From the NCBI GenBank assembly GCA_964187785.1, contig OZ076409.1, positions 434,001-498,000 of the forward strand: 64,000 bases of DNA, in the 5' to 3' direction. Positions 8,415-56,499 of the stretch are shown one piece after another (positions within the stretch are counted from its first letter, which is position 1; each line of letters opens with the position of its first letter). Position numbers and translations under genes: made by a program. The notes beneath the pieces are model-generated. The model searched no databases. It saw nothing but the letters and a program-made list of their open reading frames with translations, and was not told the origin of the DNA. This DNA is from Amphiscolops sp. MND2022. Taxonomy: Eukaryota.

Positions 8415-8560
8415 ACAAGGCGAGAAACCTTTTCTCTCTAAAAGTGACGCCAGAGAACTAGGTAAAAAGGTTGTTGTGATTGTCTTTTGGGGAGATTGGC
8501 ACACCCAAATGTGGTATTCCTGCAATTGATGAACAACAACGAAACCTGCAACGCTCTGAA

Positions 8561-9071: not shown

Positions 9072-10205
9072 GCTCCGAAATGTCTGAAGCCCTCAGGGTT
9101 GATTGACTGGATAAATTGTAGGCTTTGCAACAGATGGGTTCATATAAAATGAGCCAATTTATCATGAACGGAGGCCCGGAGCCTTGCCGAATTTAAATGT
9201 AGTAGGTGCTCTTTGGTGAAGACAATCCCTCAGTGTCAGGATGATAACTTTAGACCGGACACTTTTTAATATTCAGGCGTTGTTCACTTGAAAAAGTTCC
9301 TTAAAATTCACGGACCCCCTTAGCTGAAATCTTGATTCCCAAAATTAATACTATTTGTGAAACCTCTTCAAACATTACCTTGTGGTGCTTACTGCTCTCC
9401 TCTCAAAGCTTTTTTTTGGAAGCCCATCTTGAGGAGGTAAATGTCAGAGGTCATCACTCAGTGCAATTATCAACAAGCGTATTCGCGATGCTGTCATTGC
9501 GAAAAAACCGAAAAGCAGCAGAAAAGCGAGCTAGATTGACGACTGCGTTCCATTTGCACTAAATTAGACGAAGGTATTGTTAAGGCTGGAATCAGAATGG
9601 CATTAGGCGACGACAAGATTGCAGATTTCACGGTCGACAGCTACGCTGCCTTAAGCTTAAACATCCGCAGAGGGAAACTTGCTCTGTTCCGGACCCCACA
9701 GATATCGATTGTTTTTCAACCTCGGAGTTTTTCGTCCACAAAGCACTCATGTCCTTCCATGACTTCACATGTTTTTCGTTGTTTGATGGATAGCTCCCAG
9801 CCTAAAGAAAACGTTATTTTGGAAATTGACTTTGGAAAATTTTTGAAATCTACACTGAAGTTTATAAGTACTCACACTTGGCGTACAGTCAGCCAAGTTT
9901 TCTTTTTTTTACGGTGATTCAGTAATCAAATCTTGTGAAGGGACCCAGCAAGTGGATCCTGAGTTTCCAGCTTTTTTTCGGATTCCATTCAGAATCTCGA
10001 TGACAGTTTTGAGTCGAAAATAAATTTATGGTACCTTATGACGATGGAATATTAAGTGATTATTACAGAACCGTTTTGAAAGATCTCAAAAAAATTGTTG
10101 AAGCGGAAAAAACGCTGGGACTCAAAGTTTAACCCACGAAATGTGAATTTTCTTTCCTTGGTGACAACACTGATAAACGACGATCGACATTTTCAGCATC
10201 TTTCC

Positions 10206-13200
10206 AAAAAATTTGCCCCGAGATCAAAACACCAAAGAAATATGACCTTATCATTCTTGGTTCAATGCTCGGCACGAAATCACAAGCAGACTTATTGGAA
10301 AAAAATGATTGAACTGGAAAAAGTTAATGGAATTGTTGAAAAACTAGATGGGCACTATGGTTTTTTTATGTTGATAAAATGCTTCAGTTTGCCAAAGTTG
10401 TTGTACGTCCTGAGAACCAGCACATGTTTTAATCATCCAGATCTCTTGAAAAAAGATGACAAAACCGTGCGCGACGGGCTTTCCAAAGTGTGTAAGGTGA
10501 ACTTCGACAATAATTCGAGTCCTCAGCTGGCTCTGCCCGCTAAAATGGGTGGTCTCGGAGTTTCATCCGCATCACTAATAGCACCTCCCGCCTTTCTGGA
10601 TTCAGCTTTTGGTGCGAGTGACTTTCTCACGACGACTTCCTTGAAAACATTCGAAGATGTTTCGTTTACAAAAGCGCTTGAGAAGTGGTTGAGTATGACA
10701 AATGAACAGGAAAGTCCTCTCGATGGAACTCAGAAAAATTGGACACAACCTGTCTAAGTCAAAACCGCCCAAGATTTGATTTCTAGAATGGATGGCAAAC
10801 GTTCGAAAGTTTTCAACGCTCATCAAGGCAAATTCGGGTCTCAATGGTTGAACGTCGTTCCTTGCAAGAACCTAGACCTGAAACTTGATGATCAGCAACT
10901 TCTTATTTCAATTGGTTTGCGTCTCGGTGCCAACATCTGCGTTGCGCATACGTGTCACTGTGGTAAAAGTGTTGAACGGGACGGTTTACACGGTCTTTTT
11001 GCACCAAGAGTGCTGGTCGCTTCTTACGTCATGATACTCTCAATTCTCTCATTAAGCAGAAGGTGGGATCTCTGGACTTGTCTTAATGCTCGAACAGCGT
11101 GGAGTGTAACCGAAATGATGGCAAACGCCCAGACGGTGTTACCATGATTCCTTGGAAAATGGGTAAATAGCTTGTGTGGGATGTCACGGTTGTGAATTCT
11201 CTTGCACACAGTTGCCAAAATCAAGGCCCTTTATGCAACCAACCGGGAACAACCGCCACCGAGGCTGATACATTTTTTAACGGGTGGCCTTGGAAGCACA
11301 TGTTTCTTTATGCTAGAGCAGTGAAATTTCCATCACAAGTCTCTGTAAAATGCTCTGTCGTTCGCACGACGATCAACGAGCTGAAGGTTTTTTGAAGCAA
11401 CGGATTTCAATGGCTCTTCAGATTGGCATGCGGCCTGTGTTCTAGGAACTGTGAGCGACAGAGATGCGTTCGAAGAACTTTATTACAAATGGCTCAATTT
11501 TTATGAACCTTTATAAATCATTGCAGCTTGAAAAATTATTCTACCGGTCGACTGGGATAGTGGCTGGTATTTGTAGTTTGTTGGTTTTTTTTTGTTACTG
11601 GTCTACTGGTATAGTGGCTGGTATGGGGTTCCCTACTTCCGTTGCAGACCACGGTTGTGTCTCCTCCTCCCAACATGATGACACACATGGCACTTTTTTG
11701 ATGACGAATATCCATGATATCAGAACGTAAGACAGAAACAAAAAATTTGCCCCGAGATCAAAACACCAAAGAAATATGACCTTATCATTCTTGGTTCAAT
11801 GTTCGGCACGAAATCACAAGCAGACTTATTGGAAAAAAATGATTGAACTGGAAAAAGTTAATGGAATTGTTGAAAAACTAGATGCGCACTATGGTTTTTT
11901 CATGTTGATAAAATGCTTCAGTTTGCCAAAGTTGTTGTACGTCCTGAGAACCAGCACATGTTTTAATCATCCAGATCTCTTGTAAAAAGATGACAAAACC
12001 GTGCGCGACGGGCTTTCCAAAGTGTGTAAGGTGAACTTCGACAATAATTCGAGTCCTCAGCTGGCTCTGCCCGCTAAAATGGGTGGTCTCGGAGTTTCAT
12101 CCGCATCACTAATAGCACCTCCCGCCTTTCTGGCTTCAGCTTTTGGTGCGAGTGACTTTCTCACGACGACTTCCTTGAAAACATTCGAAGATGTTTCGTT
12201 TACAAAAGCGCTTGAGAAGTGGTTGAGTATGACAAATGAACAGGAAAGTCCTCTCGATGGAACTCAGAAAAATTGGACACAACCTGTCTAAGTCAAAACC
12301 GCCCAAGATTTGATTTCTAGAATGGATGGCAAACGTTCGAAAGTTTTCAACGCTCATCAAGGCAAATTCGGGTCTCAATGGTTGAACGTCGTTCCTTGCA
12401 AGAACCTAGACCTGAAACTTGATGATCAGCAACTTCTTATTTCAATTGGTTTGCGTCTCGGAGCCAACATCTGCGTTGCGCATACGTGTCACTGTGGTAA
12501 GAGTGTTGAACGGGACGGTTTACGCGGTCTTTTTTGCACCAAGAGTGCTGGTCGCTTCTGACGTCATGCTACTCTCAATTGTCTCATTAAGCAGACGGTG
12601 GGATCTCTGGATTTGCCTTAATGCTCGAACACCGTGGAGTGTAACCGAAATGATGGCAAACGCCCAGACGGTGTTACCATGATTCCTTGGAAAATGGGTA
12701 AAAAGCTTGTGTGGGATGTCACGGTTGTGAATTCTCTTGCACACAGTTGCCCAAATCAAGGCCCTTTATGCAACCAACCGGGAACAACCGCCACCGAGGC
12801 TGATACATTTTTTAACGGGTGGCCTTGGAAGCACAGGTTTCTTTATGCTAGAGCAGTGAAATTTCCATCACGGGTCTCTGTAAAATGCTCTGTCGTTCGC
12901 ACGACGATCAACGAGCTGAAGGTTTTTTGAAGCAACGGATTTCAATGGCTCTTCAGATTGGCTTGCGGACTGTGTTCTAGGAACTGTGAGCGACACAGAT
13001 GCGTTCGAAGAAATTTATTACAAATGGCTCAATTTTTATAAACCTTTATAAATCATTGCAGCTTGAAAAATTTTTTCTACCGGTCGACTGGGATAGTGGC
13101 TGGTATTCGTATTTTGTTGGTTGTTTTTTATTACTGGTCTACTGGGATAGTGGCTGGTATGGGGTTCCCTACTTTCGTTGCAGACCACGGTTGTGTCTTC

Positions 13201-13275
13201 TCCTCCCAACATGATGATACACATGGCACTTTTTTGATGACGAATATCCATGATATCAGAACGTAAGACAGGAAC
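10206..13275. repeat. Tandem duplication of ~1.53 kb (10206-11740 / 11741-13275)
   Basis: ATTTGCCCCGAGATCAAAACACC recurs at 10211 and 11745; near-identical ORF translations. Confidence 0.9.
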
Positions 13276-13379
13276 AAGACGGAATCGTCTCAATTCGGTA
13301 CCACATTAAAATTGGATTGTCATCAATTAGCTTGCTTTTTTAGAAAAAAAACAGTTTTTTATTCATCATGTGCCACCAG

Positions 13380-14720: not shown

Positions 14721-14934
14721 AGATCCTACCAAGAAAAATCTGCCTGAGGGATCTTCGAGCGGAACGGAACATATTGATTCCTCCCCGGGACATTTTCTAG
14801 AGCCACCAATTTATGGCTTCAGTCACAGCACACTACAAGTGTTTTATTGCTCTTTCTCAAATAGTAACCGAAGGATCAAAAACGAGCAGAGGGACAAACA
14901 CGGAAAAACCGAACTGGCAGTTTCTGAAACCATC

Positions 14935-17286
14935 TGTTACGACAATTTACCGGTGTTGTTTTAGAGTTAGTCGTATTATGAGTTTTGACGGGGGTAGACG
15001 TCCTTGCTACGGAAACGTTCTCTGTTTCAGAGTCAGAGTCTTGAGCATTGATGAGGACATTTTGTTTCTTGTGGAAGGCGTTATCAGCCGTTGAAGTCGT
15101 TGAGGCGCTATCAGTTTAGGCATTTCCTTTTGATTTTCCTCAAGTATTTTGGTCAGGTCAGACATAATCTCCTTTCTTAGTGACGTTTTTATTTCAGCCA
15201 AGTTTTCTGGTTCTATCCTAGGAATCTTGCTAGAACTAGCTACAAGGGTTTCAGGCGGAAAGTTTTCGGTTACAGAGGTTTCGAAATCACCAGAGACCAA
15301 TTCTGCTACAGCTTTCCTTTTCTGGCTTCTAGTTGTCATTTTGTTCGAGAGAAAGAGAGAGAGTATCTTTGGAAATGTTGAATTCTTCAAAGATTTGTTT
15401 TCGTTATGATAACGGAACAGAACTGATTGTTACAAAGCAAGTCAAAAAACTAATTGATTTACATGTATGTATTACATATTTATACCTTCCCAGCATCATT
15501 TGTTCCTCACCTAAAAATTCCTAGGTATCACAAAAATCGGGTTTGTTCAACAAAAAGCGCTAATGATTCATATTATTTCAGTCCCGCGTCATAAGATCAG
15601 GCATCAAAATTCCTAGTCGCGTCAGCGTTCCGTAAAATTTTGTTGAAGTCATTTTTGTTCAGGCGGTTCATTTCCTGTTTGTGCTTCAAAATTGCGGCAA
15701 AATAGAAGTCTAGTTGACAGTTTCATCAGCGTAGGCACGCCGGCGTGATCAATTAGTCAGCAATCAAGTTAGGAAGATTGAAGTCCGAAGCAAAAGAATG
15801 ACACTCAAAAATGGCGACGAAATCGAGACGGAATGAGTCAACTTGGAAGCGGAAGGAAAATATGGAAATTTGGTATAAAGGAACAAACGATGCTGAAACG
15901 ATAATCCCAAATTCAAACATATGAATTACCTGCTAATGGCATACTACATCATTTATACTGAACTCAAATTAAGTCCAAACGGGACCTTAACGGAATACAA
16001 CAAAGATGAGCGCAACATATTCGTAATAATAAGTGAAAAGCAACTTCAACATTTTACATAATAACCATGAAATTCATCAAAACATAATCAAAGTTTGGTC
16101 ATTAGCCTGATTGTTGTTATCATAAATTACAACTGTTATTACTGACTTGAAAACAAGGAAGTAGCGTTGACCTTACGTCTTGCATTAGGATTATTATTAA
16201 GATATTTTAAGTGCCATAGTAAATCAAGTAGATTTGTTCCATTAAGGAGTTACTAAGCAAAGCATAATGTCAACGCGATTTAGTGATTTACCATGATGAT
16301 ACAAATCCAGAACATAAAAATACCATCGCAATTCCTATCATCCTTCCTTGCAGTACAGTTTTCCTTAAATAAGAAACATAACTCTTAAATCTTTCAAATG
16401 CATCGATTTAAAAGGCTTCGTTAGGATTTCGTTTGAAGCAGTATTTCTTATTTGCGATTTTACAACTCGCTCCGTAGATGCTACGTATTAAGATTATCTA
16501 TAGCTGAACAGCAGAATACAATTTTACAATCCGCTCCGTAAGTGCTCCGTACGTATTAAGGTTGCTTATAGCTGAGCAGCAGTAGTAAGCGGAGTGAAAA
16601 CGGAGAGCGTAGGCGATTCCATTCTCTTTTCTTAGCTAGTAAGCGTTGCTAGGGGCAACCAAGCTTAATTCTACTGGTACCGGCTCGGATAATTCCGCCA
16701 GCAAGCGACGCCGTTGGTCCGTAAAAATAGAAACGCCCGTCACTAGCCTAGTTGAGTGACGCTGTCATAACGTTGTAAACATTTACTTAAAATCACTTGA
16801 CTGCGGTTTTAAGTGGATATTTAACAACTACTTTAAAATTGGAATACATTTCCACTCTATTTTTGTATGTTCTGACATTTTAGATCTTATGGACTCCGTT
16901 GGGATCTCGGAGTTAAATGTCGTTTCTATGTTTTCATTTTAGTGTGGAGCGCCAAAATGATCCCGTTTGCAAAATTATTTAGTGTTTAGATTGGAATGGA
17001 AAACTCAGAAGATAAAACCGGAAATAAAACGGTGTTGCATGTGAAAACTTTAGACCGGAAGTTTTAGCTAGTTTAAAATCATTTCTGAAAATCTTCCGTA
17101 ACGTTTACCTTGAATTCCGTATTTGGAAAATTATTCGCGCTTATTTAACTGTCCTGTAAGTAGGATTTTGATTTGATTAGTTTAACAAAGTTTAAAAGTA
17201 TTTACTCTGTCCTTGTCCATGTCCTCTGCCGAATCCCGGTATACCAGAGCAGCAAGTAAAATTACGACCGGGAGGGGGTCGTGACA
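14935..17286 (-). repeat. 3' LTR (2352 bp)
   Basis: Direct repeat of 29205-31530, ~99% identical by eye apart from a net 26-bp insertion near 15070-15105; TG...CA ends with 9-bp imperfect inverted repeat. Confidence 0.97.
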
Positions 17287-17298
17287 GGGCCCCTCTTG
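17287..17298 (-). promoter_or_regulatory. Short polypurine tract candidate
   Basis: Minus strand reads CAAGAGGGGCCC immediately before the 3' LTR TGTCACGAC. Confidence 0.5.
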
Positions 17299-17349
17299 AT
17301 GAGAGTGACAGGGGTAGAGCGTGGCAGTGCGGGATTTCTTTCTTTATTG

Positions 17350-18032
17350 TCACGGGGGGCGACCATTGTACTTTCTTGAATGGAGGGGGTCTCGTCTTCT
17401 TCCCGCCTTCATGTCCCTAATTTTCCTTTCTTCTTCGTCTAGCTCACGGACTTCCTTCTCCAGTCGTTCTACTTCCTCCGGACAGCATTTGGGGGGTCTA
17501 ATTATGATGTTAGGACGCAGATTTTTTTTAAGCGCGGCTGATTTGTATTCATTGCGTGTCGCCCGCGTCCACGGCCTAAGGATGCGAGGTAATTTCGGTC
17601 CTCTAAGTCCAGGCTGTACAGGGCTTCCAATTCCGCCAAAGAAGGCTCATTCAAGTCGTTTAATTTTTCCGAGTTTGGCATTTTTTCATTTCCCAGAACA
17701 GGGATATTTTCCGTTCTTTTTAGAACAGGAGTACGCTTTATTGGGGAAGGTAGGCGTTGCGGGGAGTCTGGCTCTTCATAGTAATCCGTGTCAGAGTCGG
17801 CTGACAGCAGATTGAACGTGACTCTTCCTGTTTTCCTTTTCTTTTTAGGTGTCGGTGCCGTTTCGGGTGACTCGGAAGTGGAAACCATTTCTGCATCGCT
17901 TCCGCGATAAACTTCGGCAGAGGAATCGCTCATATATCCTACCATATTAAGAGGCAGCGTTTTTATCGGCGTACTTGTTTTATTGGCTTCTTCGTCTGAC
18001 GAGATGTCGATAACTAGCGAATAGTTGTTCAT
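17350..18032 (-). pseudogene. Accessory sense ORF: acidic/Ser-Pro-rich protein with PKKKRK NLS and probable C-terminal coiled coil; one frameshift in this copy
   Basis: ATG at 18032, 176-aa ORF; an overlapping frame from ~17575 continues PWTRATRNEYK...EEVERLEKEVRELDEEERKIRDMK...RPP* to TGA at 17350-17352, with AATAAA 2 nt later. Confidence 0.6.
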
Positions 18033-18039
18033 TTTAGTA

Positions 18040-18439
18040 GGAAAAAATGCTGAGAACTATTTCGGAGAGGTTGCAGGTAGTTTGTAAGCAAAGATTTCTT
18101 GTGACACTTCAGAAAATTCAGAAAGTTTTAAGCTGGTCAAGCTTCTGCGAAAATTGGACAACAAGTGAACGTTTTAAATTCTTTCCTTTCGCGATTTTCA
18201 TCGAATTTCTATTGGTCGATTTTCCGTTTTCATTCCGGTTCGTCACGAGTTAAAGGAAACGAGTTCTTTCTTGCTGTGTTATGATTGGTCCAAATACTTA
18301 AGGGAAAACTTCTAATTTTAGTTTCCGTCCTCTTTTCGGTTAATGGCGTAATGACGTCACAGAATTACGTCTGTATTCCGTGATCTTTTAATAATTTTTC
18401 AAATTCTTCTTGGCATTTCTTGGTGGATTTTTATCCACT
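18040..18439. promoter_or_regulatory. Candidate internal bidirectional promoter between the two accessory genes
   Basis: Lies between divergent ATGs; ATTGG (CCAAT) at 18211 and 18284, AATGGCG at ~18342, perfect TGACGTCA at 18352-18359. Confidence 0.4.
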
Positions 18440-18641
18440 GTAAGGTCTTTGGAAACGTTTTGTTCCGTCTATACCATAATAGGCTTTTATTGGAGTTGAA
18501 GATTGGGTGATTTTCATTTGTGTAGGAATGATGTTGTTAATTTCCTCCCAATTAGTTGAGTTTACGTAACGTAATTCTTCTTTGTGATTTTCCTTTTTCT
18601 TTTTAGATTGCTGTGGGCATCTTTGCTGTCGTTTCTTTTCT

Positions 18642-21600
18642 ATGGATGACGAAACTGCTCCGCCCCAAGGCACCGTCACCGGATTTGTCAGTGGCAATGA
18701 AACTAATTTTTGTTATACTGACGATGACGTGATCTTTTCGGAGGTGGAGGCAGTGGTTACTTCTTCAGGTTGGTAAAATCTTTCTGACTTTCATGGGTAA
18801 TTGGACTGTTGTTTTGGTGATCAGCCTTTCCAGTCTTACCCGAATACCTGACGCGTCAAACCAGATCTTGATTTTCAGTAACTCAACCTGGCGCTTCAAC
18901 TGCAGTTGTTTCCGTAGCCACTGCGGGAGTTCTTTCGACAGAGGCTACCGTTCTGCCATCAGTTTCTACTATCTTGTCTACTAAGCCCACTAGTGCAGTT
19001 AACGAAGTGTTAACCACTGTATTGACTAGCGCTGAGCCCGACGATTCATTTCCAGTGGACTCTTCTCCTGCCATTGTTGGTCCGAGTACACGTGTTGTTG
19101 CTGCGAGTAGCGATAGTGAGTCTCAAGAAGGTGAGACAGATCCCCCGCCAATAGGAAAACCCGTTGGTAGATTCGTTTTTGATAGTGTATTTTTGATATG
19201 TGGGCGGGGTGTACGAAAATTATTTTTGTTGTTGTAGATATGAGGGATGCTGAGACGCATGGGCCTTCCAACATTTGTGTGACGCCATCGAAACGGGCGA
19301 AGAAGGTTGTTATCGCTCCGCCATCGCCTCCTCCTTTGATGCATGCTTCTACTGGTTGGCAAAGTTAGTTCTATTATTGGTATTATTTTCCGCTGCGTTC
19401 TTTGAATTGAGGAGAGTTTTAGTTGCCCATTGGTTTGGTTTCTTTGGGGATATCCTATTTTTTGGTAATCGTTTTCATTGGGTGTTGATGTTGTGTAGGT
19501 CACGATGATGATCAGTTAAATGGTGTCGGCGGTGTGACGTTGAGTCCCCAGGACGTGATGCGATTGGGTCAGCAACTTGTGGAAGAGTTGAAGGAAAGTG
19601 CTACGCTGGTTATTCAAAACGGTTAGCGTTTGCGTTTTTCCCTGTAATTCGGGTATTACTTTGTTATTTGGTGAGGGTTTTCGTTCATTTACAGTGTAGT
19701 GTGGATATTCTTTATCCTCTTTGTATGTTGTTTTGTAGAGTTGCAAGAGTTCAGTGGGAAAGTAGAAAAACGTCTAGCCAAGCGGACAGTGAAGACATAC
19801 GGGAATCGCAACACGTTGCAACGTCGTATGTTGAGTCGACATCCTTCATTTCCTGATTTCGTGACAGGCTCCACGACCGGTGAGGAAACTCACTTCCACT
19901 GTCGGGTATGCAAGCGTGATGTGGCCATGAAAGCTCAGGGCTCTGGAGAGTTGGGCAGACATTTCCGTTCTGATGCTCACTGGTTCAAGGACATTACTTA
20001 TCGCGTCCATATGGGTCTTCAGGTGCTCAACAGGTTGATGGAGCCGATGGAATTGTCAGCAAGTCAACTGGCAGATTATAAGTCTCGACCATTTTGTGAT
20101 CTTAGCGGGGAGTATCCGTTCCCTGAAGATCTATTGCCTAAGCATTCAAAAGCGGAGTCAAACGTGCCCTACATGACCTTGGTTTCTTGTTTTTGTGAAT
20201 TCTTGCGGAATGGTGGTAATTTTGATTATCTTCGTCGTCTGTGGGGCCACTTCCGAGCAACATTGGGCGACCAAGAACCTTGCTTTCTTTTACGATGGAG
20301 CCGTTCGGAGACCGTGGTGAGTTGGTTTTGTTATTGCTATTGTTTGTTTCTGTCGTGTATCCGGGTGAGAGAAAACAGAAGGGAATAGGGGGGGTATGTC
20401 TTTTGTAGTTGTTTAGAAAAAAGGTTCTCGTTTGTGTTTTAGTCATTCCTTTGTCGGGGGCTGGCTCCGCGAGTTCTTCGTCTGATGGTGAGTGACGTCA
20501 AATCTTTTAAAGAGTACGGGATGCAGTTTGAGAAGTCTGGGTGCATAGAACGTTGCTATGTTCTTTGTTGGGATGGACTGAATTTAAAGAAGATTTGTGT
20601 GGGAGATCAGTCTTTGGATCAAAAAATGCCCGAACCCGAGTTGCTTCAGTTGGCACGTGTAGCGAGCTGCCTGGAGGGACAACAATTACCAGTGTCAGTT
20701 CTCGGCGCTAGCCCTTCGCTCATTCGCGCGTTAGACACGAACAGGACGGATGATCGGCGGTTTCTGTCATGGCAGTCGTTTGATGAGGAGGTGTTTCTCC
20801 AGTGTTTCCGACAGTCTCATCAGGACATTTTTGGAATGATTGAAGTGACGACTGCATTGGAGTATGTGATCCATCGATTGAAAAGGGCTCTCTATGAGGA
20901 TTGGACAGAAGACAAGCCTCGTCTTCGAGCGTGTATACGGAAAGGCTCCGTTGCATTCTGCAATCTTCGAAAGGTCCTAGGCGATTTGATCGAACTGTGG
21001 CCTTCCATACGTCCTTACATTCGCTACACTGGACATCCTCATTTTAAGCGTGTTGCTGATAGGGTGAGTACTGTCGTATTATTAGTTTATTTCGATCTTG
21101 TGTCGTTCCTTTGTTCTCTCCTGTGCTTTCCTGTGCTATATTTGATCTTGGAATGATGGTATAATTTATCCATTTTAGCTGCGCGGCACAGACTTCGAGT
21201 TAATTTCCGATAGTCTCATTGTCTATCGTTTCGGCTTCCTTCGACTGCTTTTAGACTCCTGTAAGTACGGTGGTCTTTCGTTATAATTGTTCTCTTTCGC
21301 CTGTTTCTGATTGTGGTAGCGTATTGACTGATGTTTCTTGTCATTGTGGGTTTGCTATTGCATCTGGTTTCTATTGGCTGTTTCGTTTTGATCAGGATTC
21401 CATATCTTTTCAATAGTTCTTGTGTTTAGAATACTTCAATTTTGAGAAATTGCGTCAATGCAGGAGAGATTACGGGTTTCATGGTTACGGTGAGGTCTGC
21501 AACTTCGTCTACTGTCTGCTGATGCGAACCCGTAAACTGTCTGATTTGCCTGGTATCCATGAATGAGAACGTTATATGGATGTTTCGAAACTTTCCTATT

Positions 21601-22694
21601 TCAACGCTATTTCCATGAAAGAGTTCCTGATGGACAGTGATTTTGGTCGCGAGTTGGTCACTGTCAAGACGGGTGAGATGCGGGAATTCCGCGTTAAATG
21701 CCGTGGGTGTATCGATCGGCTTGTGTCTTTGGTCCTGACTAGTACAGCTGTGACTTCTGCCGTTTCGCGAGGACTTTATGCTTTCTGTCCGGAGATTATG
21801 TTGGGAGGCGACGATCACCACATTTTCAAGTTGTTTGGCTCGCTTTGTGATTTATTCAGATCCTGCCACGTGATGTCTTCGGACGGCTTGAATGCTGCTA
21901 ATGCTGAGTTCAAAAGTTATGTGATAGAGAAACGCAGGCATTACGAGGATGCGACATGTGCTGCGAGTGAGATTCCTGACGTGGTTCAGTTTCTGTTGCG
22001 GGATTTTGCCTTCCAGTCTCGGACTCATGTATTTCGACTGTTTAAAATATGTTGTCTGGTGGTTGGAGTGCCAAAAAGTAGCCTTCCTGCGGTTACTATT
22101 GATTTGGGTGGTAGCGCGCTGAGTCCGACAGTGGTTCAGGATTGTGTATTGATAGTGCAGTCTCACATCGTAAGTCCAAGTTTCAATCCTCGATTGTTCT
22201 TTTCAGCATCGTTGCTTGTTGCAGTCCGGGAAGCTATTACAGAGTCAGGCATTTTCTTCAGGGTTGCCGATTTTGATGTATGGAAAGATTTTTGCTCTGG
22301 CGATATGGAGTCTTTTGTTGGGCATTATCGATCTTTGTATAAGAAGTATTTGATGGGACGACGGAGGGAGTACGACACTTTCTATGTGGAATGCAACAAG
22401 GCAAATCGGCGTTCTCGCGAGAGTCAGTGTTCAAGTTCAACTGAGGCCGGAAGTGCTACAAGTTCTGTTGTCGGTTCTAAGAAGGCATCGTCAAAGATTG
22501 CTTCGTCAAAGTCTGTGAAAGTAAATGCGTCTACTACTCGTTCATCAGCAAAAGTTGTGAGTAAGGAAGATGGAGCTGTTGCGAAAAAGAGTGGTGGGGG
22601 CAGTGTGTCTAGAAGGTCAAAGAAAGATAAGGGCAGTGATTCTGATGATTCTGATGTAGTCCACAAGTTGAAAAAGACATCTTCTAAGAATTAA
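18642..22694 (+). CDS. Eight-exon antisense accessory gene (~1054 aa): disordered N-terminus, CX2CX16HX5H zinc finger, hAT-transposase-like body, Ser/Lys-rich tail; this copy has 1-2 premature stops
   Basis: Exons 18642-18768, 18879-19130, 19238-19354, 19499-19621, 19739-20316, 20443-21063, 21179-21260, 21430-22694; all introns GT-AG, T-rich, 107-169 bp; phases join into one frame (3165 nt). TGA at 21564; last junction ambiguous (best sites create TAA). Confidence 0.8.
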
Positions 22695-22801
22695 TGGATA
22701 ACTGATGCTGATTCGATTTCCTGATGAATTATATCTTTTGATATACCTGTTATTTATATTCTTTGTTTTATGGTCTGATTGATTTCTACAAGTCACACCA
22801 G

Positions 22802-25800
22802 TCATTCGTTATAGTTACGTAGTTTTAGTAGATTGCGAAAATTGACGTAGTCATTCCGGTTCGGTTTGATATGCTGATTCTTTTGTCTAGTCTTGAGCTG
22901 ATCTCCCGTAGTGACTGAGTCGAGCATTCTGAAGTCAGGATTTACGTTAGGTCGTGGATTAGGTCTCAAATTATATCGCCCTACTTTCCTAGGATTATAT
23001 CCAATGACTATAGGCGGTAGTTCGGGTGTTTTGGGAGGGCTTTCTATAGGTGGCGGTGTAAAAATATAGGGGTTGTCGCTGACGTCCAAGTTAAATGACG
23101 TTATATTGTCGGAGGGTGTTTTATCTTCTGCAGTATTTTCATTTGTGGCTGTTTGAGCCACGTCATTTTCCGTTATATCTTCGCTTGTGGTTGTTTTAAC
23201 CACGTCATTTTCCGCTGTAATTTCATTTGTGATTGTTTTAACCACATCATTTTCCGTTGTAATTTCGTCGTTTCCTGTTGTGTCTGTGATTTCTATAACT
23301 GTGGCTTCTTCGGCGGCGTTTTCCGTATTGTTTCCGAACAGAACTTCTCCGAATTCGGTTTCCCAAGCTTGCGCGTACCAATCATTGTGGGTTGTTTTAA
23401 CCTCTGGATCTGGAAGGTAATCTTCCCTTCTGACTGTTACGTCAGGTACTCGCTGATTGGGCGCATATAGCTTTAGGCGAATTCTATGGAGGGTTTGAGT
23501 ATACCTAGTTCCTGTGCGACGTACGACGTAGTTATTGTTCGAGAGTGATTTGACTACTATGTAGGGTCCAGTCCAAATGCAATCTTTAAAGGCAAATTTC
23601 ATTGACTGGTTGTCTGCCTTCGGATTGAGGACGTAGCAGTAGTCGTTGACTTTGAGCGGTGTAGCCGTTGCTTTCTTGTCATAGTACTGTTTGTATTTGA
23701 GGTAAGACTGCATTAGGTTCTCTTTGGCAGCTTGGTGTATTTCGGCTATTTGTTTCTGTAGTTGGTCCGTTAGTTCTTCGTTGCTATCTTTTTCCCAGTT
23801 AGGTTTCAATCCAAGTTTCATGTCCAAAATGTTGTACGGGATGCGTCCGTGAAACACTGTTGTAGGTTCACAACCTAGGCTTTCATGGTAGCTTGTATTG
23901 TAATTCATGAGTGCAATCTGGACGTATTTGTGCCACATGGAACGTCGTTCTCCCGTTGATATCTTGAAAGAGGTTTTCAAAGAAGCATGGGTCCTTTCTA
24001 GGATGCCAATTGTTTGGGCGTGTTTCGTCGATGCGTGGTTTATCCGTATATCCAGTGTTTGTGCTATTTGGTTGACTACTTCTGACCTGAATTGTGATCC
24101 TTTATCCGTTAGAATGACGGTCGGTAGATAGCAGTGTCGTGTCATGACGTCTATTATGCATCGTGCGACTGTTTTTGCTGTCATATCCTGAGTCGGGTAA
24201 GCGAAAAGGTAACGCGAAAAAACATCCATCATCGTTATGATGTGTTGGTACCCATTTGAGGAAGGTAGATTTGGTAGAATGTCTACTTCTAGGCAGTCTT
24301 CTGGTCCCATTGTGAATTCAGTGTTGCTTAGCATTTTGGGACGTATCTGTCTCGTGTCTATTCTTTTATTGGCAATGCAATCCTGACAACTGGTTACCCA
24401 AGCTCTGATTTTGCGTGCAAGACCCGGGAAGTAGTATTTCGCTCTGCATTCTTGTATCATTTTGGTGATTCCTGGGTGTTTATTTGTTTTCCCATGTAGA
24501 GTGGACAGGAGTTCTGAGACTAGGTGTTTTGGAATTATAATTTGGTTATGTGTGACTGATCCGTCTTCTCCATAGTACTTTCGCATCAGAACTCCATCTT
24601 TCATTATGATTCTTTCTTCGTGGCGTAATAGGTTTTGTCCTCGTGGTTCAGTTTTGAGAAGGTGCTTGTCACATTCTTCGTGTGAGATCCGTTGTTTCAG
24701 TGCTTTGAGGAGGGGGTCTGCATCTTGTTCATTTCTGATCCGTGCATTTTCCTTGATTGCACCGAAAGAGTAGACTGCGGAGTTGAGTGGTATCTTGATG
24801 ACGTCGGTTATTTTTGTTGATAGGTCTCTTTCGTGTTCGTCTAGGGCACGTCGCTTGCTGAGTGCTTTTCGGGCAAAAATTTCTTGTTCAGATTCATCTT
24901 CTTCGTCTGGTAGGAAGAAAAGTTGTTCCTCGTCTGCTACATCTGATGATTGTAAATTAACCTCAATTGGGGACGTTAGGATGTCGTCTCGTAGTTTAAG
25001 TTGTACCTTTTCTTTCGGTGTAAGTTCAAGTCTTGAGAGAAAATCTGCTGCCGTGTTTTGGGAGCCTGCTACGTGCATGATTCGGAACTTGAATTGTAAT
25101 ACATAGTCACAGGCATTCCAGAGTGCAGAGGGTGTCGTTTTTGTCTGGAAGAAACTAGTTACTGAGCGATTGTCTGTTAAGACCAGCGTTGGAATTGTTG
25201 TTTCCCATAGTATGTGGCTGTATTCGAGGAAGGCATGGTAGATTGCTAAGAATTCCTTGCAGTAGATGGACATTTTCAGTTGTGCAGGTGAAAAAACTCG
25301 TTATCCGAACGCTACTGGTGCGAAGGTTTTTCGTTTGGAGAGTATTTTGCGTTCGTCGTTCTCCTCAATCATGAGGGCGTAGCCTGATGCACGAAAGCTT
25401 GCATCCGTCATTAGAACGTACTGTTTTCCTGCTATGGGCTGTCGGAGTGCAAGTCCACAAGCTTCCGCTAAACTGGCGTTAATTTCCTTAAAATTATCGA
25501 CAAGTTCTTCTGAAATTCTGATCTTGGAGTCTGCTTTGAGAAGTTCGTACATGCCGATGAGTTTTTCTGACAAGCGCGGTTTGTAGTTGCGGTAGTAGTT
25601 AACAAAGCCAATGTATTTTTGAACTTGTTTTTTGGATTTGGGGAAGCGGACTTGGGAGAGGAAATTTTTGACTTTTTTATCTTGCGGGGTTACTCCGTCG
25701 GGGGTGATGGTTCGGCCAAGGAATTCGATTTGGGTTACTCCAAAATGACATTTTTCGATGGTTAGTTTTAGTCCTGCTTTTCTAATGCATTTGAAGGCTG

Positions 25801-28180
25801 CTCTGATGTTCTTTATGAGCTGTTCCGTTGTGTTTGCGGCAATGCCAATGTCATCTACATATTGTGCACATTGGTCTGCTTTGATGACTGAGTCCAGATA
25901 CTCACGCATAAAGCTCGAAAAAACTGATAGAGCTCTGCTTAATCCTTGTGCCAGGCGACGGTAGGCGAACGTCCTACAAGCAAAATTGAAAGCAAGTAAT
26001 TCTACTGACCTTTGATCTGCCATTTGGAGGCAGTGGTACGCCTGGGAGCAGTCAAGCTTGCAAAATAGTTTTTTCCCTGCTAGGTGTTGTGCCGCATCTG
26101 AGAGGGTGCTGACAGGGTGGTTGTTTTTGATGTAGTCATCTGCTATGAGTGCGTTGATTTTGCGCAGATCCACCAGTAGTCTCAGCTTGCCGTTGGGTTT
26201 CCGTTGTGCAAATATGGGACTGGCATACTTGGAGAAGGGGAGTGTTGTGATGATTCCGTATCGATGCATGAGGGCCAGTTCTACAGTCAGATCTTCTTTG
26301 AGGTTGATGGGGACGGGTAGGCTTTGTGTGTAGACTGGTTTGTCGTCTTGTGGTGTTAGGCTGACTTTGAATTGTGTGTTCATCCCTATGTCTAGCCGGT
26401 GTCGAGCGAAGAAGTCGTTGAATTCGACAATGGTGTCCTCGAGGTTTTCACGGTCTTTGTTCGCAATCAGTGAATCTGTCCATTTGAACGTGGATAGAAA
26501 TTTGTTTCGAGACTCTTCGTTTTCGGTTGGGTCAAGTTTTTCTAACTCGGCGAGGTCTCGCAGTTCGCAGTTCTTTCAAGATTAGCTTTTGTATGGGCGA
26601 ATGTTCCTGTTCGTTGCCGGGGTGTTCTGGGGTCGGAAACCAGAATTTCTCTTCATTATCGTCGGGCCGCTCTACTTGCATTAGTGCATTAATGTACGTG
26701 ACTACATCGTCATGGTCAGTGAGGTGGTTTAGGGCGGCTATGTCAACTGGGCGGATCATCTTCGTTTCTTCGGGTTTCAGGATTTGCAATTCGGCCATTT
26801 TGGTGTTGGTGGCTATTGTGTATGGGAAATCCGTGGTGTTGGCGATTTTAATTGGTATCTTTTGTCTCTGGCTGTTGTAATCGCTGGGGCTACTATTACC
26901 TTCGCGCATTCATCGAATTGTGGTAGGGGTTGTATAGTGCCCGCTATTGAGTGTTCGATACTCACAGGGATTGTTGCGTAGATGATTCGGGTAGAGTGCG
27001 CTGGAATTGTATGCTTGGCTTCGGTCTTTATCGTGATGGGTTTGGGATTGCACTTTTGTCTTTCATCTGTGAGCGCCATCGTGATTTGGATCTTAGGAAA
27101 GTCGATGGTTCCTTGTGCCGTGTCAAGAATTGCGGCATGCTTACGTAGGAACGCTAATCCGATTATGGGGAATGACGTTTAATTCATGATAATGAATGTT
27201 TCTTCAAAGGTGTAATCCCCTATTTTGAAACGAAGGGTGTACGTGGCAAGTGGTTGTTCTAATTCAGCATTGGCATACTGCACTTTGAAAGGGGGTGGGG
27301 GTGCCTTATTGACGATGCACTGACTAGCGTGCTGTCGGAGTTTTTCAGTGTCCCTTTCACTAATAGCGTTAATGTACGCACCTGAGTCGACTAAAGCGTC
27401 GATTTTGATCATGTTGAATTCGACTGGTAGGAAAAGCATTCGTTTTTTCTTCTTGAGCGCGATGGAAGACATTAACGGGATGTAGTCGTCATCTTTGTCA
27501 TGTTGGATGAATTCCTTGATGGCATCTAGATCTTCAGGCAATTCTGAGGGACATTCGGTGATTTCTACGTCGTCGTTCATCAGTGCTGTGACGGGCGCAG
27601 TTTTTGGAGGGGTTACTGGAGGATCAACATTTTCTCGTTTTCGTCTTTCTTGATGTGCCCATATTGTTTTATCTTCAATGCAGAATATGTTTTCTGCGTC
27701 TATCGGTGTGGACGCGATGGTGACGGGTACTGTTGGGGATGGTGTTGTTCTTTTTAGAATTGGCGATGGTGGTGATGGTAGGTCCATGATTTCTGTGGAT
27801 TGAGCCTGGGGGTTTGGGACTTGTATTTTGAAAGAGAGTTTGTTAGTATCGTAAATGGTTGGTTCGTCCCAAGGGTCGCATCTGTAGTCTCTATCGTAAA
27901 TGAAGATACGCTCAGTTTTTGATTCCGGCAAGGGTCGCTTGAGTGTTGCGTAGTTATCTGGTGACTCTGTTATCCATTGGGGTAGTGGTGTCGGGTCGTC
28001 TGGATGTCTGGCATTGTGTCGGAGTATCATGCCTACGTTCCATCGGCGTTGCCAGTCCTGAGTTGGTTCTTCGTTACACTCTGTGAAAAAATCTTCTTCG
28101 TACCTATTTGGGGGGTCTTCGATGGTGTACGCCCTCGCGTCTACTTTTTCCCCGAAGCGTAGGCGCGGCGACTTCAGTTT
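22802..28180 (-). pseudogene. pol: pol polyprotein (aspartic protease, RT, RNase H, integrase) with one stop and about three frameshifts
   Basis: ALVDSGA protease; LRLLVDLRKIN, KLDCSQAY, LAQGL, YVDD RT; TDAS and TDNRS/AADFLSR RNase H; H..HPG..C..C plus D-ILP / TDKGSQF / ERTH integrase. Confidence 0.95.
23125..23275 (-). repeat. ~42-bp coding tandem repeat (ITxENDVVKT-like) in the integrase C-terminal tail
   Basis: EITTENDVVKTITN / EITAENDVVKTTTS / EDITENDVAQTATN / ENTAED. Confidence 0.75.
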
Positions 28181-29583
28181 TCTGCTTGGGACGACGTTGT
28201 AGGTACGGGTTGTTCGTCAATCTTGTTTGTTGGGATATTGAACTCACGTTTCCGTTTCCTGGGGTCATTTGCCGCATTGGCTCCGTCCCAGCAATTTTCG
28301 GTTTTGTGCATTTCCCCACAAGTATCGCATTTGGGTTTAGCTGTATCTGTTTGTTTGGTGTCTGTGGTACTTGTTTTTGTGGCGTAGTACCTGTCTTTGC
28401 GGAGGCGACGGCATTGTGCCTTGTAATGTCCGTATTTCCCACAGTGGAAACAGTAACCTCTCTGCTGTTGTTCTTTCTTATCGTCCGCCACTGCTGCGTC
28501 CACAGTGTTGAGGGGGACTAGAGTGGTTTCATCAGGCGCTCCTAGTCCGTTGAGTCGCATTTCGCGTTCAAGGTGTAAAACAATGTCGTTATAGGGCTTA
28601 TCTTCTAGGTAGGCTCTGTTAAGGATCTTTTTGACGTGATCCGGCATTTTAGCGTATATGGCTTTGTCGATGAACTTCTGGGCTTCTGAGCCAAACGCTT
28701 CTTTTGCGGTTTTTTGTAACGGGTCAAGAAATTCGTGGAGTTTTTGTTTAGTGGGGTCGAAATGTAGCGCATCCCACTCACATCTCGCTTTAGCGGATGA
28801 TTTGAAATCGCCAAAGCGACGTTTGAATGCCGTTATGACTTCTTCTAGGTTGTCTTTTTTAGTGTCATCTAGATTGGAATACGGTTGTAGCGCGTTTCCT
28901 CGTAGGAGTGAATGGAAGTAGTTGATCTTTTGTATCTCGGTTAACTGAGGGTACATTTTGATAATATTTCGGAATAGGTCCTCAAAAAGTTCAAACTTTT
29001 CGGACTTACCATCGAAGACTGGAAGTGAAGCTGTGAGTGCTTTCGGCATCGGAAGTAGATTGGTGGCTGGGAATGTTTGCGGTTGTGGCGCGAACAGTAT
29101 TTTGGATGTGGAAGGACGGTCTCTTGTTTGTTCGTTGGATGCGCGTTGTTGTTTCAATCTTTTCGTGGGTTGGTTGGTAGAGTCATTGAGGACTCCTGTT
29201 ACCATGTTACGACAATTTACCGGTGTTGTTTTAGAGTTAGTCGTATTATGAGTTTTGACGGGGGTAGACGTCCTTGCTACGGAAACGTTCTCTGTTTCAG
29301 AGTCAGAGTCTTGAGCATTGATGAGGACATTTTGTTTCTTGTTTAAAGGCGCTATCAGTTTAAGCATTTCCTTTTGATTTTCCGCAAGTATTTTGGTCAG
29401 GTCAGATATAATCTCTTTTCTTAGTGACGTTTTTATTTCAGCCAAGTTTTCTGGTTCTATCCTAGGAATCTTGCTAGAACTAGCTACAAGGGTTTCAGGC
29501 GGAAAGTTTTCGGTTACAGAGGTTTCGAAATCACCAGAGACCAATTCTGCTACAGCTTTCCTTTTCTGGCTTCTAGTTGTCAT
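28174..29583 (-). CDS. gag: Gag (469 aa from the first ATG) with two zinc knuckles; starts inside the 5' LTR
   Basis: Intact ORF; LPVFDGKSEKFELFEDLF capsid-like start, CFHCGKYGHYKAQC and CDTCGEMHKTENC knuckles; ATG at 29583 (the track start at 29634 is TTG). Confidence 0.92.
   Translation of the reverse strand: MTTRSQKRKAVAELVSGDFETSVTENFPPETLVASSSKIPRIEPENLAEIKTSLRKEIISDLTKILAENQKEMLKLIAPLNKKQNVLINAQDSDSETENVSVARTSTPVKTHNTTNSKTTPVNCRNMVTGVLNDSTNQPTKRLKQQRASNEQTRDRPSTSKILFAPQPQTFPATNLLPMPKALTASLPVFDGKSEKFELFEDLFRNIIKMYPQLTEIQKINYFHSLLRGNALQPYSNLDDTKKDNLEEVITAFKRRFGDFKSSAKARCEWDALHFDPTKQKLHEFLDPLQKTAKEAFGSEAQKFIDKAIYAKMPDHVKKILNRAYLEDKPYNDIVLHLEREMRLNGLGAPDETTLVPLNTVDAAVADDKKEQQQRGYCFHCGKYGHYKAQCRRLRKDRYYATKTSTTDTKQTDTAKPKCDTCGEMHKTENCWDGANAANDPRKRKREFNIPTNKIDEQPVPTTSSQAEN
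29187..29204 (-). promoter_or_regulatory. Primer-binding site
   Basis: TGGTAACAGGAGT directly follows the 5' LTR end; resembles the complement of a tRNA-Leu-type 3' end (tRNA identity not verified). Confidence 0.7.
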
Positions 29584-56495: not shown

Positions 56496-56499
56496 GGAA

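Follow-up and report, generated by a model that had tools for sequence, protein, structure and literature searches.

A Ty3/Gypsy retrotransposon clade in an animal genome carries an eight-exon antisense gene under purifying selection

Animal LTR retrotransposons are usually described as gag-pol elements with or without env, and reverse transcription is expected to strip introns from any cargo that a retroelement carries. Extra genes that sit in the interval from pol to the 3′ LTR and run against gag-pol are well established for plants and one fungus, as reviewed in PMC7264820. The plant examples belong to Tat/Retand elements, are termed aORF-3R, and include maize Grande gene23, rice RIRE2, Silene Retand, and Phaseolus PvRetro13 (PMC7264820, PMC11963269). 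A promoter of its own has been reported for the Grande antisense ORF, and aORF-3R proteins have been proposed to be nuclear or DNA-binding (PMC7264820, PMC11963269). The fungal case is brtn, the antisense gene of Boty-like Gypsy elements from Botrytis and Sclerotinia (as cited in PMC7264820). The same review calls for a search for spliced transcripts of antisense ORFs. Here, we describe such a gene from Amphiscolops sp. MND2022, whose genome is marked as that of an animal by its Wnt genes. In the window, the stretch of 64,000 nt of contig OZ076409.1 that was analysed, it occupies 18642-22694 of the plus strand, between integrase and the 3′ LTR and opposite gag-pol. It therefore fits the definition of an aORF-3R in PMC7264820, a coding region that lies beyond pol, before the 3′ LTR, and in the opposite direction to gag-pol.

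The plant aORF-3Rs resemble this gene in place, orientation, presence in most copies of a family, and an unusually long region between pol and the 3′ LTR. However, their hosts are plants, and the accounts in PMC7264820 and PMC11963269 describe them as single ORFs and make no mention of introns, whereas the present gene has eight exons. Transposase_28 (PF04195) is reportedly encoded by 97% of Retand clusters, but the present protein has no match to it; the family is absent from the Pfam matches at E<=10 for 13 and 30 relatives. Membership of the plant Retand/Tat antisense protein family was rejected on this missing TRP28 domain match. The brtn gene is likewise described as an accessory gene on the antisense strand of a Ty3/Gypsy element, in the interval from pol to the 3′ LTR, although its host is fungal and the present host is an animal with thousands of candidate copies. 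PMC11963269 and PMC7264820 also mention retroviral antisense genes, among them HBZ of HTLV-1. Like the present gene, HBZ codes for protein on the antisense strand at the 3′ end of a reverse-transcribing element; its product is a nuclear regulatory protein. HBZ mRNA is spliced, but the gene is short, with a single intron and a start in the 3′ LTR of a vertebrate retrovirus, and it has no sequence relation to the present gene. Engineered retrotransposition indicator cassettes carry an intron-interrupted reporter in antisense orientation. They share the logic that whether an intron is gone by the time of reverse transcription depends on which strand is transcribed; however, the cassette intron is spliceable on the element RNA and is lost, whereas the present introns would be spliceable only on the cargo mRNA, and would therefore be kept. 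The telomeric TART elements of Drosophila have antisense transcripts with several spliceosomal introns that survive retrotransposition, eight of them in TART-A (PMC1636488). TART is a non-LTR element, and its spliced antisense RNA is described in PMC1636488 as having no significantly long ORF, in contrast to the 1,054 codons under purifying selection found here.

The element that hosts the gene is a 16.6-kb Ty3/Gypsy LTR retrotransposon on the minus strand (14935-31530). Its 3′ LTR (14935-17286; 2,352 nt) and 5′ LTR (29205-31530) form a direct repeat with 97.7% identity over 2,352 columns. The LTR termini, TGTCACGAC...GTCGTAACA, are of the TG..CA type and inverted-complementary at 8/9 bases, and both element ends are flanked by the same five nucleotides, GATGG on the element's strand, as a target-site duplication (14930-14934 on the 3′ side, 31531-31535 on the 5′ side). 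A putative primer-binding site, TGGTAACAGGAGTCC (TGG...), to which no tRNA was matched, immediately follows the 5′ LTR (29190-29204), and a polypurine-tract-like run, AAGAGGGG, abuts the 3′ LTR (17287-17299). On the minus strand, gag with its CCHC knuckle (28174-29583; Pfam DUF1759, 4.8e-9; Retrotrans_gag, 5e-4) is followed by an aspartic protease region (27179-28216), reverse transcriptase (25301-26575; RVT_1, 1.5e-23, and the ORF table), and an RNase H plus integrase ORF (22802-25300; RT_RNaseH, 2.4e-6; Integrase_H2C2, 4.4e-14; rve, 2.5e-12). The protease region is recognised by weak, below-cut-off Asp_protease families (0.002-0.006) and shares 30-33% identity with the corresponding region of three sister families. 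There is also a weak zf-CCHC match in the gag ORF (28177-29673). The first ATG of the gag open frame, at 29583, lies within the 5′ LTR, and its N-terminal part also finds matches within the 3′ LTR of sister families. In the window's copy, an in-frame stop divides the reverse transcriptase ORF from the next pol ORF. The LTRs, TG...CA ends, target duplication, CCHC-bearing gag, and protease-RT-RNase H-integrase order with integrase last place the element in Ty3/Gypsy, the protease matches being weak; a BEL/Pao peptidase A17 is not among the Pfam matches listed for the element's ORFs. The ORF table also contains a small sense-strand ORF of uncertain status (17502-18056, minus strand), with 184 codons, an acidic Ser/Asp-rich composition, and a PKKKRK patch. 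It is open in 4/6 copies, including the window's, and a tblastn search of three divergent families found no match to it at E<=1e-5. The antisense gene probably has its promoter in a region that this ORF overlaps.

The eight exons of the antisense gene join to 3,165 nt, or 1,054 codons and a stop, and its seven introns are all GT-AG, 107-169 nt long, and 36-50% T. Exon 1 (18642-18768) opens with an ATG at 18642 that is present in 27/29 sister copies. The gene model, sister copies, and codon-position diversity define exon 2 (18879-19130), which is of low complexity and rich in Ser, Thr, Val, and Ala, and exon 3 (19238-19354), which carries the basic patch PSKRAKK. Exon 4 (19499-19621) rests on the gene model and sister copies; the relative P0001 reads through intron 4, and the intron 4 boundary is seen there too. 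Exon 5 (19739-20316) has the lowest diversity among the long exons and encodes a zinc finger, CxxC-x16-H-x5-H, whose ligands were compared in relatives. Exons 6 (20443-21063; 621 nt) and 7 (21179-21260; 82 nt) precede exon 8 (21430-22694), for which the gene model, relatives, and a structure model indicate an all-alpha domain and a Lys/Ser-rich tail before the stop at 22692-22694. Only a 107-nt spacer (22695-22801) separates this stop from the end of the pol ORF in a tail-to-tail arrangement; AATAAA and ATTAAA are absent from the plus strand in 22600-23100 and within 400 nt after the stop. An eighth intron is probably located in the 5′ UTR (18440-18606, plus strand; GTAAGG...TTTTTAG), with GT in 28/29 and AG in 27/29 sisters.

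The original prediction had arrived at exactly these exons and introns and a frame of about 1,054 codons, and it had described the introns as uniformly short and T-rich, the gene as lying antisense between integrase and the 3′ LTR about 110 bp tail-to-tail from pol, and the 5′-UTR intron, now graded probable, as possible. It had also found the first six junctions free of stops, and it named as caveats a TGA at 21564 and an ambiguous last junction, in a copy with a similarly damaged pol. Both caveats are resolved: the last junction is right, and the in-frame stops of the window's copy, just two in number (the codon spanning exons 7 and 8, and 21564-21566), prove to be private to it on comparison with sister copies. 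This copy is dead for the antisense gene and for pol.

Splice sites and reading frame are conserved among sister copies. A search gave 538 first-look candidates, and the best-scoring 40, which are 93-100% identical, were scored; intron 5, assessed as exon 5-intron 5-exon 6, is kept in all of them. We aligned 29 sister copies for splice sites, frame, and diversity. For introns 1 to 7, the donor GT is kept in 29, 29, 28, 29, 27, 29, and 29 of the 29 copies, and the acceptor AG in 28, 29, 29, 29, 29, 28, and 28. Once the introns are excised, 9/29 copies are free of stops through all eight exons, for about 1,010 codons, to the end of the loci at 22563. Five more have one stop, and the remainder have more stops or frameshifts. 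This pattern of splice sites and open frames is far beyond chance. Defects in 20/29 copies are the expectation for ageing copies, most of which cannot make the protein. With GT-AG ends, pyrimidine tracts, a single restored frame, conservation among copies, and variable intron sequence, the segments appear to be spliceosomal introns, and we infer that the gene is transcribed and spliced.

Purifying selection acts on the protein that the exons of the antisense gene encode, while the introns drift and gain indels. The 29 copies differ from the window by 2.6-5.2% in exons and by 2.9-9.6% in introns. Indel events per kb per copy amount to 0.2-1.1 for exons 2-8 and to as many as 14.7 for introns, which makes them about ten times rarer in exons. 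The dN/dS ratio is 0.32 (dN 0.024, dS 0.074), with dN below dS in 427/435 copy pairs, and dS is close to the intron distance of 0.056. Diversity at codon positions 1, 2, and 3 is 0.030, 0.024, and 0.050, against 0.05-0.06 in introns, and the order third > first > second is seen in every one of the eight exons. Such selection among copies is compatible with a protein that works for the element and equally with one that is tolerated on other grounds.

The antisense gene belongs to the element in every copy looked at. Judged on the best-scoring candidates, the pol-side junction (22200-23400) aligns over its full length in 39/40 scored places and the LTR-side junction (16900-18800) in 36/40, self included in both counts. 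The gene is thus present in most copies, as expected of an aORF-3R, and not in just one or a few, which would point to a transduction: in 40/40 scored copies, at both junctions, and in three divergent families. A nested DNA transposon was rejected, since no inverted repeats flank the segment in 17287-23100; the one pair found there is an internal 18-nt palindrome. Composition also matches on the plus strand, with T 0.33 and G 0.27 in the antisense gene and 0.36 and 0.27 in gag-pol. The kept junctions and introns, the selection, and the layout shared by divergent families support an integral, selected part of a retroelement family over a one-off nested insertion. The original prediction had likewise seen no terminal inverted repeats, and its expectations for sister copies (recurrence of the region, a conserved frame, exon dN/dS below 1, and faster-diverging introns) agree with the counts and distances above.

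Three divergent elements in the same genome show the order gag-PR-RT-IN and then, in antisense, exons 5, 6, and 8. They are 75-82% identical to the window's element in RT, 53-68% in the integrase region, and 34-53% in the cargo. The cargo evolves faster than RT, integrase, or gag between families, so the core genes are under the stronger constraint. We compared intron positions in one of these families, C3. Introns 5, 6, and 7 are GT-AG and at the same positions as in the window, exons 6 and 7 again measure 621 and 82 nt, and intron lengths differ. Exons 6, 7, and 8 of C3 join into an open frame of 633 codons up to a stop. The exon-intron structure thus predates the split of families whose cargo proteins are 34-53% identical. 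One sister family has an intron 5 that stays open in frame, and the 482-aa protein P0002 called there includes it.

First-look candidates number 8,483, 7,854, and 9,697, and all of the 104, 125, and 88 that were scored are strong matches; the family thus comprises thousands of candidate copies in this animal genome. For exon 8, there are 409 representative relatives at E<=1e-3; the 150 that were listed all measure 443 aa or less, which is what a general exon boundary would predict. The search gave no annotated long relatives. One relative, P0027, has a best identity of 48% in this genome, so the family is probably present in another genome too.

The encoded protein belongs to a new, large, unannotated family that is under selection. 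From an acidic N-terminus rich in Ser and Thr, the product is predicted to run through the basic PSKRAKK patch, a C2H2/BED-like zinc finger, some 400 residues of mixed alpha/beta structure, and an all-alpha domain of some 290 residues to a Lys/Ser-rich tail, which appears to end in a conserved short motif. All four ligands of the finger are kept in 7/9 aligned relatives, and a low-confidence structure model has a beta-beta-alpha arrangement around it. Its Pfam matches are below cut-off (C2H2-zf_KIN17 in 2/13 members, best E 0.086; zf-C2H2_jaz in 1/13), and zf-BED is not among the matches listed for 13 relatives. The exon 8 model has a mean pLDDT of 68.8, with blocks of the all-alpha domain at 80-98. 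Exon 6 is modelled as beta-beta-beta-alpha-beta-alpha at low confidence (pLDDT 49.7), a lead only toward a hAT-like transposase; hAT families are not listed in the Pfam scans of 13 and 30 relatives, and DUF4371 has no match anywhere in this genome. Pfam at E<=0.1 gave no family for the translations of exons 2, 5, 6, and 8, and the scans of 13 and 30 relatives gave no known family. Among solved structures, no relative was found by sequence, and a fold search gave no match. The zinc-finger pattern, the basic patches, and analogy suggest that the product is most likely a nuclear, nucleic-acid-binding factor.

We consider it probable that this Ty3/Gypsy clade carries a third gene, antisense, of 1,054 codons and with seven spliceosomal-type introns, that the element needs. 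The element would replicate via a minus-strand genomic RNA on which the introns stand as their reverse complement; there, they would go unseen by the spliceosome, and reverse transcription would copy them unchanged. Such protection would result from the replication mode of LTR elements, and it agrees with the finding that all copies examined still have their introns. For the cargo mRNA, plus-strand transcription would start at a promoter in the LTR or in the 1.35 kb that separates the 3′ LTR from the ATG, and the host would splice the transcript. Its product may be a factor required for propagation, for example in regulating transcription, handling the element's RNA or DNA, or countering host silencing. 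More tentatively, as a claim that could well prove too strong, this may be the first animal retrotransposon clade dependent on its own accessory protein from a multi-exon antisense gene, with a new zinc-finger family possibly derived from a BED-finger transposase.

A host gene or DNA transposon could instead have landed in, or been transduced by, an ancestral element and been copied passively ever since without serving it. The faster divergence of the cargo than of pol between families, the defects in most copies, and a protein with no recognisable link to retroelement functions would all suit such a history. However, passive copying predicts a dN/dS near 1 and no codon periodicity, whereas the ratio is 0.32 and third positions exceed first and second ones in all eight exons; exon indels are also about tenfold rarer than intron indels, and the gene is open and split at the same sites in families with 34-53% identical proteins. 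Terminal inverted repeats are absent, and base composition is already element-like. This explanation is thus already disfavoured, and we regard it as very unlikely.

It is still less probable that the plus-strand RNA alone matters, as an antisense regulator or as a source of dsRNA or small RNA against the element, with the long frame as a by-product. There is precedent in the non-coding antisense transcripts reported for the animal retrotransposons micropia (PMC7264820) and TART (PMC1636488), and the review raises a dsRNA role for antisense extra genes (PMC7264820). Yet an RNA-only function would not yield three-base periodicity, a synonymous excess, and open frames of about 1,010 codons in 9/29 copies, although an RNA role and a protein role could coexist. 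We give the least credence to coding exons whose intervening segments stay in the RNA, the ORFs being translated separately or the pattern being an accident of a T-rich strand. P0002, which spans the in-frame open intron 5, would fit this reading. But GT and AG are kept in 27-29/29 copies at all 14 sites, the phases fit, and excising exactly these segments opens the frame in nine copies. Moreover, exons 2-8 lack start codons at their 5′ ends, exon 2 lacks any Met, intron lengths vary between families while the exon lengths of 621 and 82 nt are constant, and a T-rich strand should have more stop codons, not fewer.

The eight-exon gene has stayed with this animal Gypsy clade across a long diversification and thousands of insertions. 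The original prediction mentioned the antisense ORFs of plant Retand/Grande-type elements and was aware of no such eight-exon cargo gene in animal Gypsy elements. What is new is the animal host, the size, and the exon number; the principle itself is treated by the review PMC7264820 as established in plants and one fungus. The rule of antisense placement known from plants and fungi extends to a third kingdom, the animals, and the role of the protein in the life of the element or against host defences is now testable. An intron-less genomic copy would record reverse transcription of the spliced cargo mRNA. The locus is also a warning for annotation, because gene finders would call thousands of orphan multi-exon host genes, or nothing. 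If the more tentative reading of a clade dependent on its own accessory protein is true, this family, with its thousands of copies, would rank with the most abundant coding sequences of the genome and yet escape standard annotation; taken with the plant and fungal cases, lying backwards and split by introns would be a general, repeatedly evolved way for reverse-transcribing elements to carry host-style genes.

We show that the antisense gene (18642–22694, plus strand) belongs integrally to a whole Gypsy clade, carries introns, and is under selection. Its carrier, at 14935–31530 on the minus strand, is a 16.6-kb Ty3/Gypsy-type LTR retrotransposon. Comparison of the window with itself yields one long direct repeat, 14935–17286 versus 29205–31530, with 97.7% identity over 2,352 columns. 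Read on the minus strand, this LTR starts with TGTCACGAC and ends with GTCGTAACA; it has TG...CA termini that are inverted-complementary at 8 of 9 bases, and GATGG lies on either flank of the whole element. In the same reading, TGGTAACAGG directly follows the upstream LTR and AAGAGGGG directly precedes the downstream one. Between the LTRs, Pfam places gag (DUF1759, 4.8e-9; also Retrotrans_gag and a weak CCHC match), protease (weak hits), RVT_1 (1.5e-23), RT_RNaseH, Integrase_H2C2 (4.4e-14), and rve (2.5e-12) on the minus strand, in that order. In-frame stops interrupt pol in the window copy, as does at least one frameshift. The host assembly comprises 1,929 contigs totalling 1.07 Gb. Wnt genes are present in it (PF00110, best E 3e-45), and control prokaryotes gave no match for them; the host is therefore an animal.

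The antisense gene has eight exons that join into one long frame. From the end of pol (22802) to the 3′ LTR (17286), the plus strand holds long open frames of 237, 237, and 375 codons, and the longest minus-strand frame in the gene region is at most 141 codons. The seven introns of the original prediction all start with GT and end with AG, measure 107–169 nt, and have a T-rich tract before the AG. Their removal leaves 3,165 nt, or 1,054 codons plus a stop, which is the length that had been predicted, with two internal stops in the window copy. The gene ends tail to tail with the pol ORF across a spacer of 107 nt, close to the 110 bp first estimated, and no inverted repeats flank it in the element region that holds it, again as first described. 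A further intron, suggested for the 5′-UTR at 18440–18606, remains a good candidate, its GT being kept in 28/29 and its AG in 27/29 sister copies (other genomic copies of the same element). Two caveats had been attached to the gene model: a TGA stop and an ambiguous last junction. The stop is present but private to the window copy, as both internal stops are single-codon changes with sense codons in all 29 sisters. The last junction is therefore correct and involves no frameshift.

Sister copies carry the same region, introns included. Genome searches were evaluated on their best-scoring copies, and every copy count is a lower bound. A query of exon 5, intron 5, and exon 6 returned 538 first-look candidates, the best 40 of which are 93–100% identical and all contain the intron. 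Among the 40 best places for each junction, self included, the segment 22200–23400 (3′ end of the gene, spacer, and end of integrase) aligns at full length in 39, and 16900–18800 (part of the 3′ LTR through exon 1) in 36. The presence of the region across copies thus agrees with the original prediction.

We aligned the window with 29 sister loci over 18239–22563, keeping all rows, including rearranged copies such as one with a replaced 5′ end. Donor GT is found in 29, 29, 28, 29, 27, 29, and 29 of the 29 sisters for introns 1–7, and acceptor AG in 28, 29, 29, 29, 29, 28, and 28. When the same introns are removed, the frame is stop-free to the end of the locus in nine of the 29 sisters; five others contain a single stop and three contain two, and frameshifts or several stops affect the rest. 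Two apparent discrepancies were discarded: a 1-nt difference in exon 1 is an alignment artefact in the T-run upstream of the ATG, and a difference at the end of exon 8 is merely the end of the fetched loci. On the plus strand, the gene (T 0.33, G 0.27) has the same composition skew as gag-pol (T 0.36, G 0.27), which points to a long history within the element. Along the gene, the sense strand of the element has 2 poly(A) signals, where 2.4 or 4.2 would be expected, and thus no clear depletion.

Selection on the encoded protein is seen in three independent ways: in divergence and indels, in dN/dS, and in codon periodicity. The 29 sisters diverge from the window by 2.6–5.2% in exons and 2.9–9.6% in introns, and indel events per kb per copy amount to 0.2–1.1 in exons 2–8 and reach 12.6–14.7 in introns 2, 4, and 5. 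Across 435 pairs of 30 copies, the Nei–Gojobori method gives dN 0.024 and dS 0.074, a ratio of 0.32, with dN below dS in 427 pairs; this dS is close to the intron-interior distance of 0.056. Nucleotide diversity at codon positions 1, 2, and 3 is 0.030, 0.024, and 0.050, and the order third > first > second recurs in 8/8 exons. Intron interiors have a diversity of 0.050–0.060 without a codon-position pattern. Both slower change in exons than in introns and a dN/dS below 1 had been anticipated.

Divergent families of the same genome carry the gene in the same place. With exon 8 as the query, a full HMMER search reached 409 representative proteins at E ≤ 1e-3, and 54 of these pass E ≤ 1e-30; the best 150 of the 409 are all exon-sized (≤443 aa). 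Among these cargo-related proteins is P0015, which shares 35% identity with exon 8 of the window and matches another locus in the same genome at 100%. Its genome search gave 8,483 first-look candidates, and the best 104, which were scored, are all strong matches in identity classes of about 93%, 78%, 70%, and 67%. This distribution indicates that the genome holds many divergent families of the gene. We fetched 20 kb around one member of each of three classes. All three elements encode gag, protease, RT, RNase H, and integrase in one orientation; antisense exons 5, 6, and 8 come next, and then an LTR. Their identity to the window's element is 75–82% for RT, 53–68% for RNase H–integrase, 57–69% for gag, and 34–53% for the exons of the antisense gene. 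In one of them, C3, introns 5, 6, and 7 are GT–AG, occupy the window's codon positions, and measure 115, 137, and 66 nt (126, 115, and 169 nt in the window). Exon 6 (621 nt) and exon 7 (82 nt) have the same length in C3 and the window, and the joined exons 6, 7, and 8 of C3 form an open frame of 633 codons to the stop. When the exons and introns of C3 and the window are compared as nucleotides, identity at such divergence scarcely exceeds that of shuffled controls.

Proteins in sequence collections carry traces of the same introns. P0001–P0003, three related read-through ORFs, have the boundaries of introns 4 and 5 where the window has them. P0002, whose best genome match is 95–96%, belongs to a sister family in this or a very close genome. 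Intron 5 of that family is open and in-frame in many copies, and ORF callers report a single 480–500-aa protein that spans exon 5, the intron, and exon 6, an annotation trap. Another relative, P0027, reaches at most 48% identity in this genome (best 125 of 7,854 candidates scored), and the gene family therefore probably exists in another organism too. An absence of intron 7 from P0027 was considered and rejected, since the relatives in the window's genome show that what it resembles ahead of exon 8 is translated intron. Long annotated full-length relatives of 777–2215 aa were not found, which is weak evidence; at 337–2000 aa there are only three relatives, all read-through ORFs. None of 80 pattern matches in metagenome contigs is related.

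The predicted protein is modular. Its N-terminal ~165 residues are enriched in Ser, Thr, Val, Ala, and Asp. It also has a basic patch (PSKRAKK), followed by a short helical stretch, and a zinc-finger pattern, FFCxxCxRDV...RHFxSDxHW (CxxC-x16-H-x5-H), whose four ligands are all kept in 7/9 aligned relatives covering the region. Exons 5–7 encode a mixed-structure region of ~400 residues, and exon 8 an all-alpha domain of ~290 residues (model mean pLDDT 68.8, with blocks of 80–98 over residues 70–160). The C-terminus is a Lys/Ser-rich tail ending in a motif of Asp-x-x-Val-aromatic-His/Arg-Lys/Arg-Leu/Ile type, which recurs in several divergent relatives. Pfam assigns no family to translations of exons 2, 5, 6, and 8, and only sub-threshold C2H2 zinc-finger matches to relatives; a PDB search by sequence gave nothing meaningful. 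For the exon 8 model, Foldseek (best E 0.6) assigns no fold, an absence that is not proof of a new one, VIA-align (best Z 5.9) aligns a single long helix only, and the ESM Atlas has no usable hit. For exon 6, the ESM Atlas points weakly to winged-helix domains of STAND proteins (0.81–0.90, below the reliable range). A low-confidence model of P0002, covering exon 5, the read-through intron, and exon 6 (pLDDT 49.7), has a beta-beta-beta-alpha-beta-alpha pattern in exon 6. Together with the BED-like finger, this pattern might fit a transposase-like RNase H core, as a lead rather than a result. As to a hAT origin, DUF4371 has no match in this genome.

The element has further unusual coding features. 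The gag frame has its first ATG at 29583 (minus strand), ~380 nt inside the 5′ LTR (LTR part 29205–29583), and continues across the PBS-like site; ~126 gag codons are thus LTR-encoded and repeated in the 3′ LTR at 14935–15313. This N-terminal part of gag also matches the 3′ LTR of the three divergent families, and a gag start inside the LTR looks like a feature of the clade. Gag of yeast Ty1 likewise starts inside the LTR. A 184-codon sense ORF (17502–18056, minus strand), acidic and Ser-rich with a PKKKRK patch, occupies part of the interval from the 3′ LTR to the antisense gene. It is open in 4/6 copies and has no match in the three divergent families at E ≤ 1e-5; it may be a small family-specific accessory ORF or a product of chance.

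Other repeats surround the element. Just outside it, two tandem units of ~1,535 bp (10205–13277, 95–99% identical) represent another repeat family, with related inverted pieces at 1606–2428 and 5150–6666. A tandem array at 58554–64000 has units of ~1,240–1,370 bp (93–95% identical) with internal sub-repeats of ~330 bp and reaches the window end. Direct repeats of 504 bp at 50058–50561 and 56497–57000 (98.4% identical, 6.4 kb apart) could be the LTRs of a different element, and a 200-N assembly gap (57001–57200) adjoins the one at 56497–57000. The segment 32000–38000 has a strong positive AT skew on the plus strand (+0.16 to +0.27), the mirror of that of the Gypsy element, and is perhaps a further A-rich retroelement of opposite orientation.

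Plant elements of Tat/Retand type are an established case of antisense ORFs located between pol and the 3′ LTR (PMC7264820, PMC11963269), and one is also reported in Boty of Botrytis (PMC7264820). Such ORFs, like the gene described here, are present in most copies and have a possibly regulatory function (PMC7264820, PMC11963269). Introns go unmentioned in both papers, and our gene has no match to the plant domain TRP28. The animal precedents found are non-coding: principally TART, a non-LTR element, for which antisense introns and no long ORF are reported (PMC1636488), whereas the present gene has a 1,054-codon frame. Full-text searches of the open literature, a scope without most subscription journals and Repbase reports, turned up no antisense gene split into several exons within an LTR element of an animal. 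The principle is known; new are the host kingdom, the protein family, and the size, this being much the largest gene of its kind found.

Antisense orientation could explain how such a gene persists. Given how LTR elements replicate, new copies would descend from the minus-strand genomic RNA. There the introns would survive reverse transcription because they are reverse-complemented and could not be spliced; they are retained in every copy examined. The mRNA of the gene would be transcribed off the plus strand, with its promoter either in the LTR or in the stretch separating the 3′ LTR from the ATG, and the putative 5′-UTR intron would fit transcription from upstream of the ATG. Judged from sequence, the gene is very probably real and functional. 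Since the protein is constrained and selection acts on lineages that keep transposing, we infer that its product serves the element. If it is functional, our best guess, itself tentative, is a nuclear, nucleic-acid-binding role in regulation or in RNA/DNA handling. Genome searches with relatives of the gene each gave 7,854–9,697 first-look candidates, and all those scored are strong matches. If most candidates lie in full elements of ~16 kb, the clade could, by extrapolation, amount to roughly a tenth of the 1.07-Gb genome.
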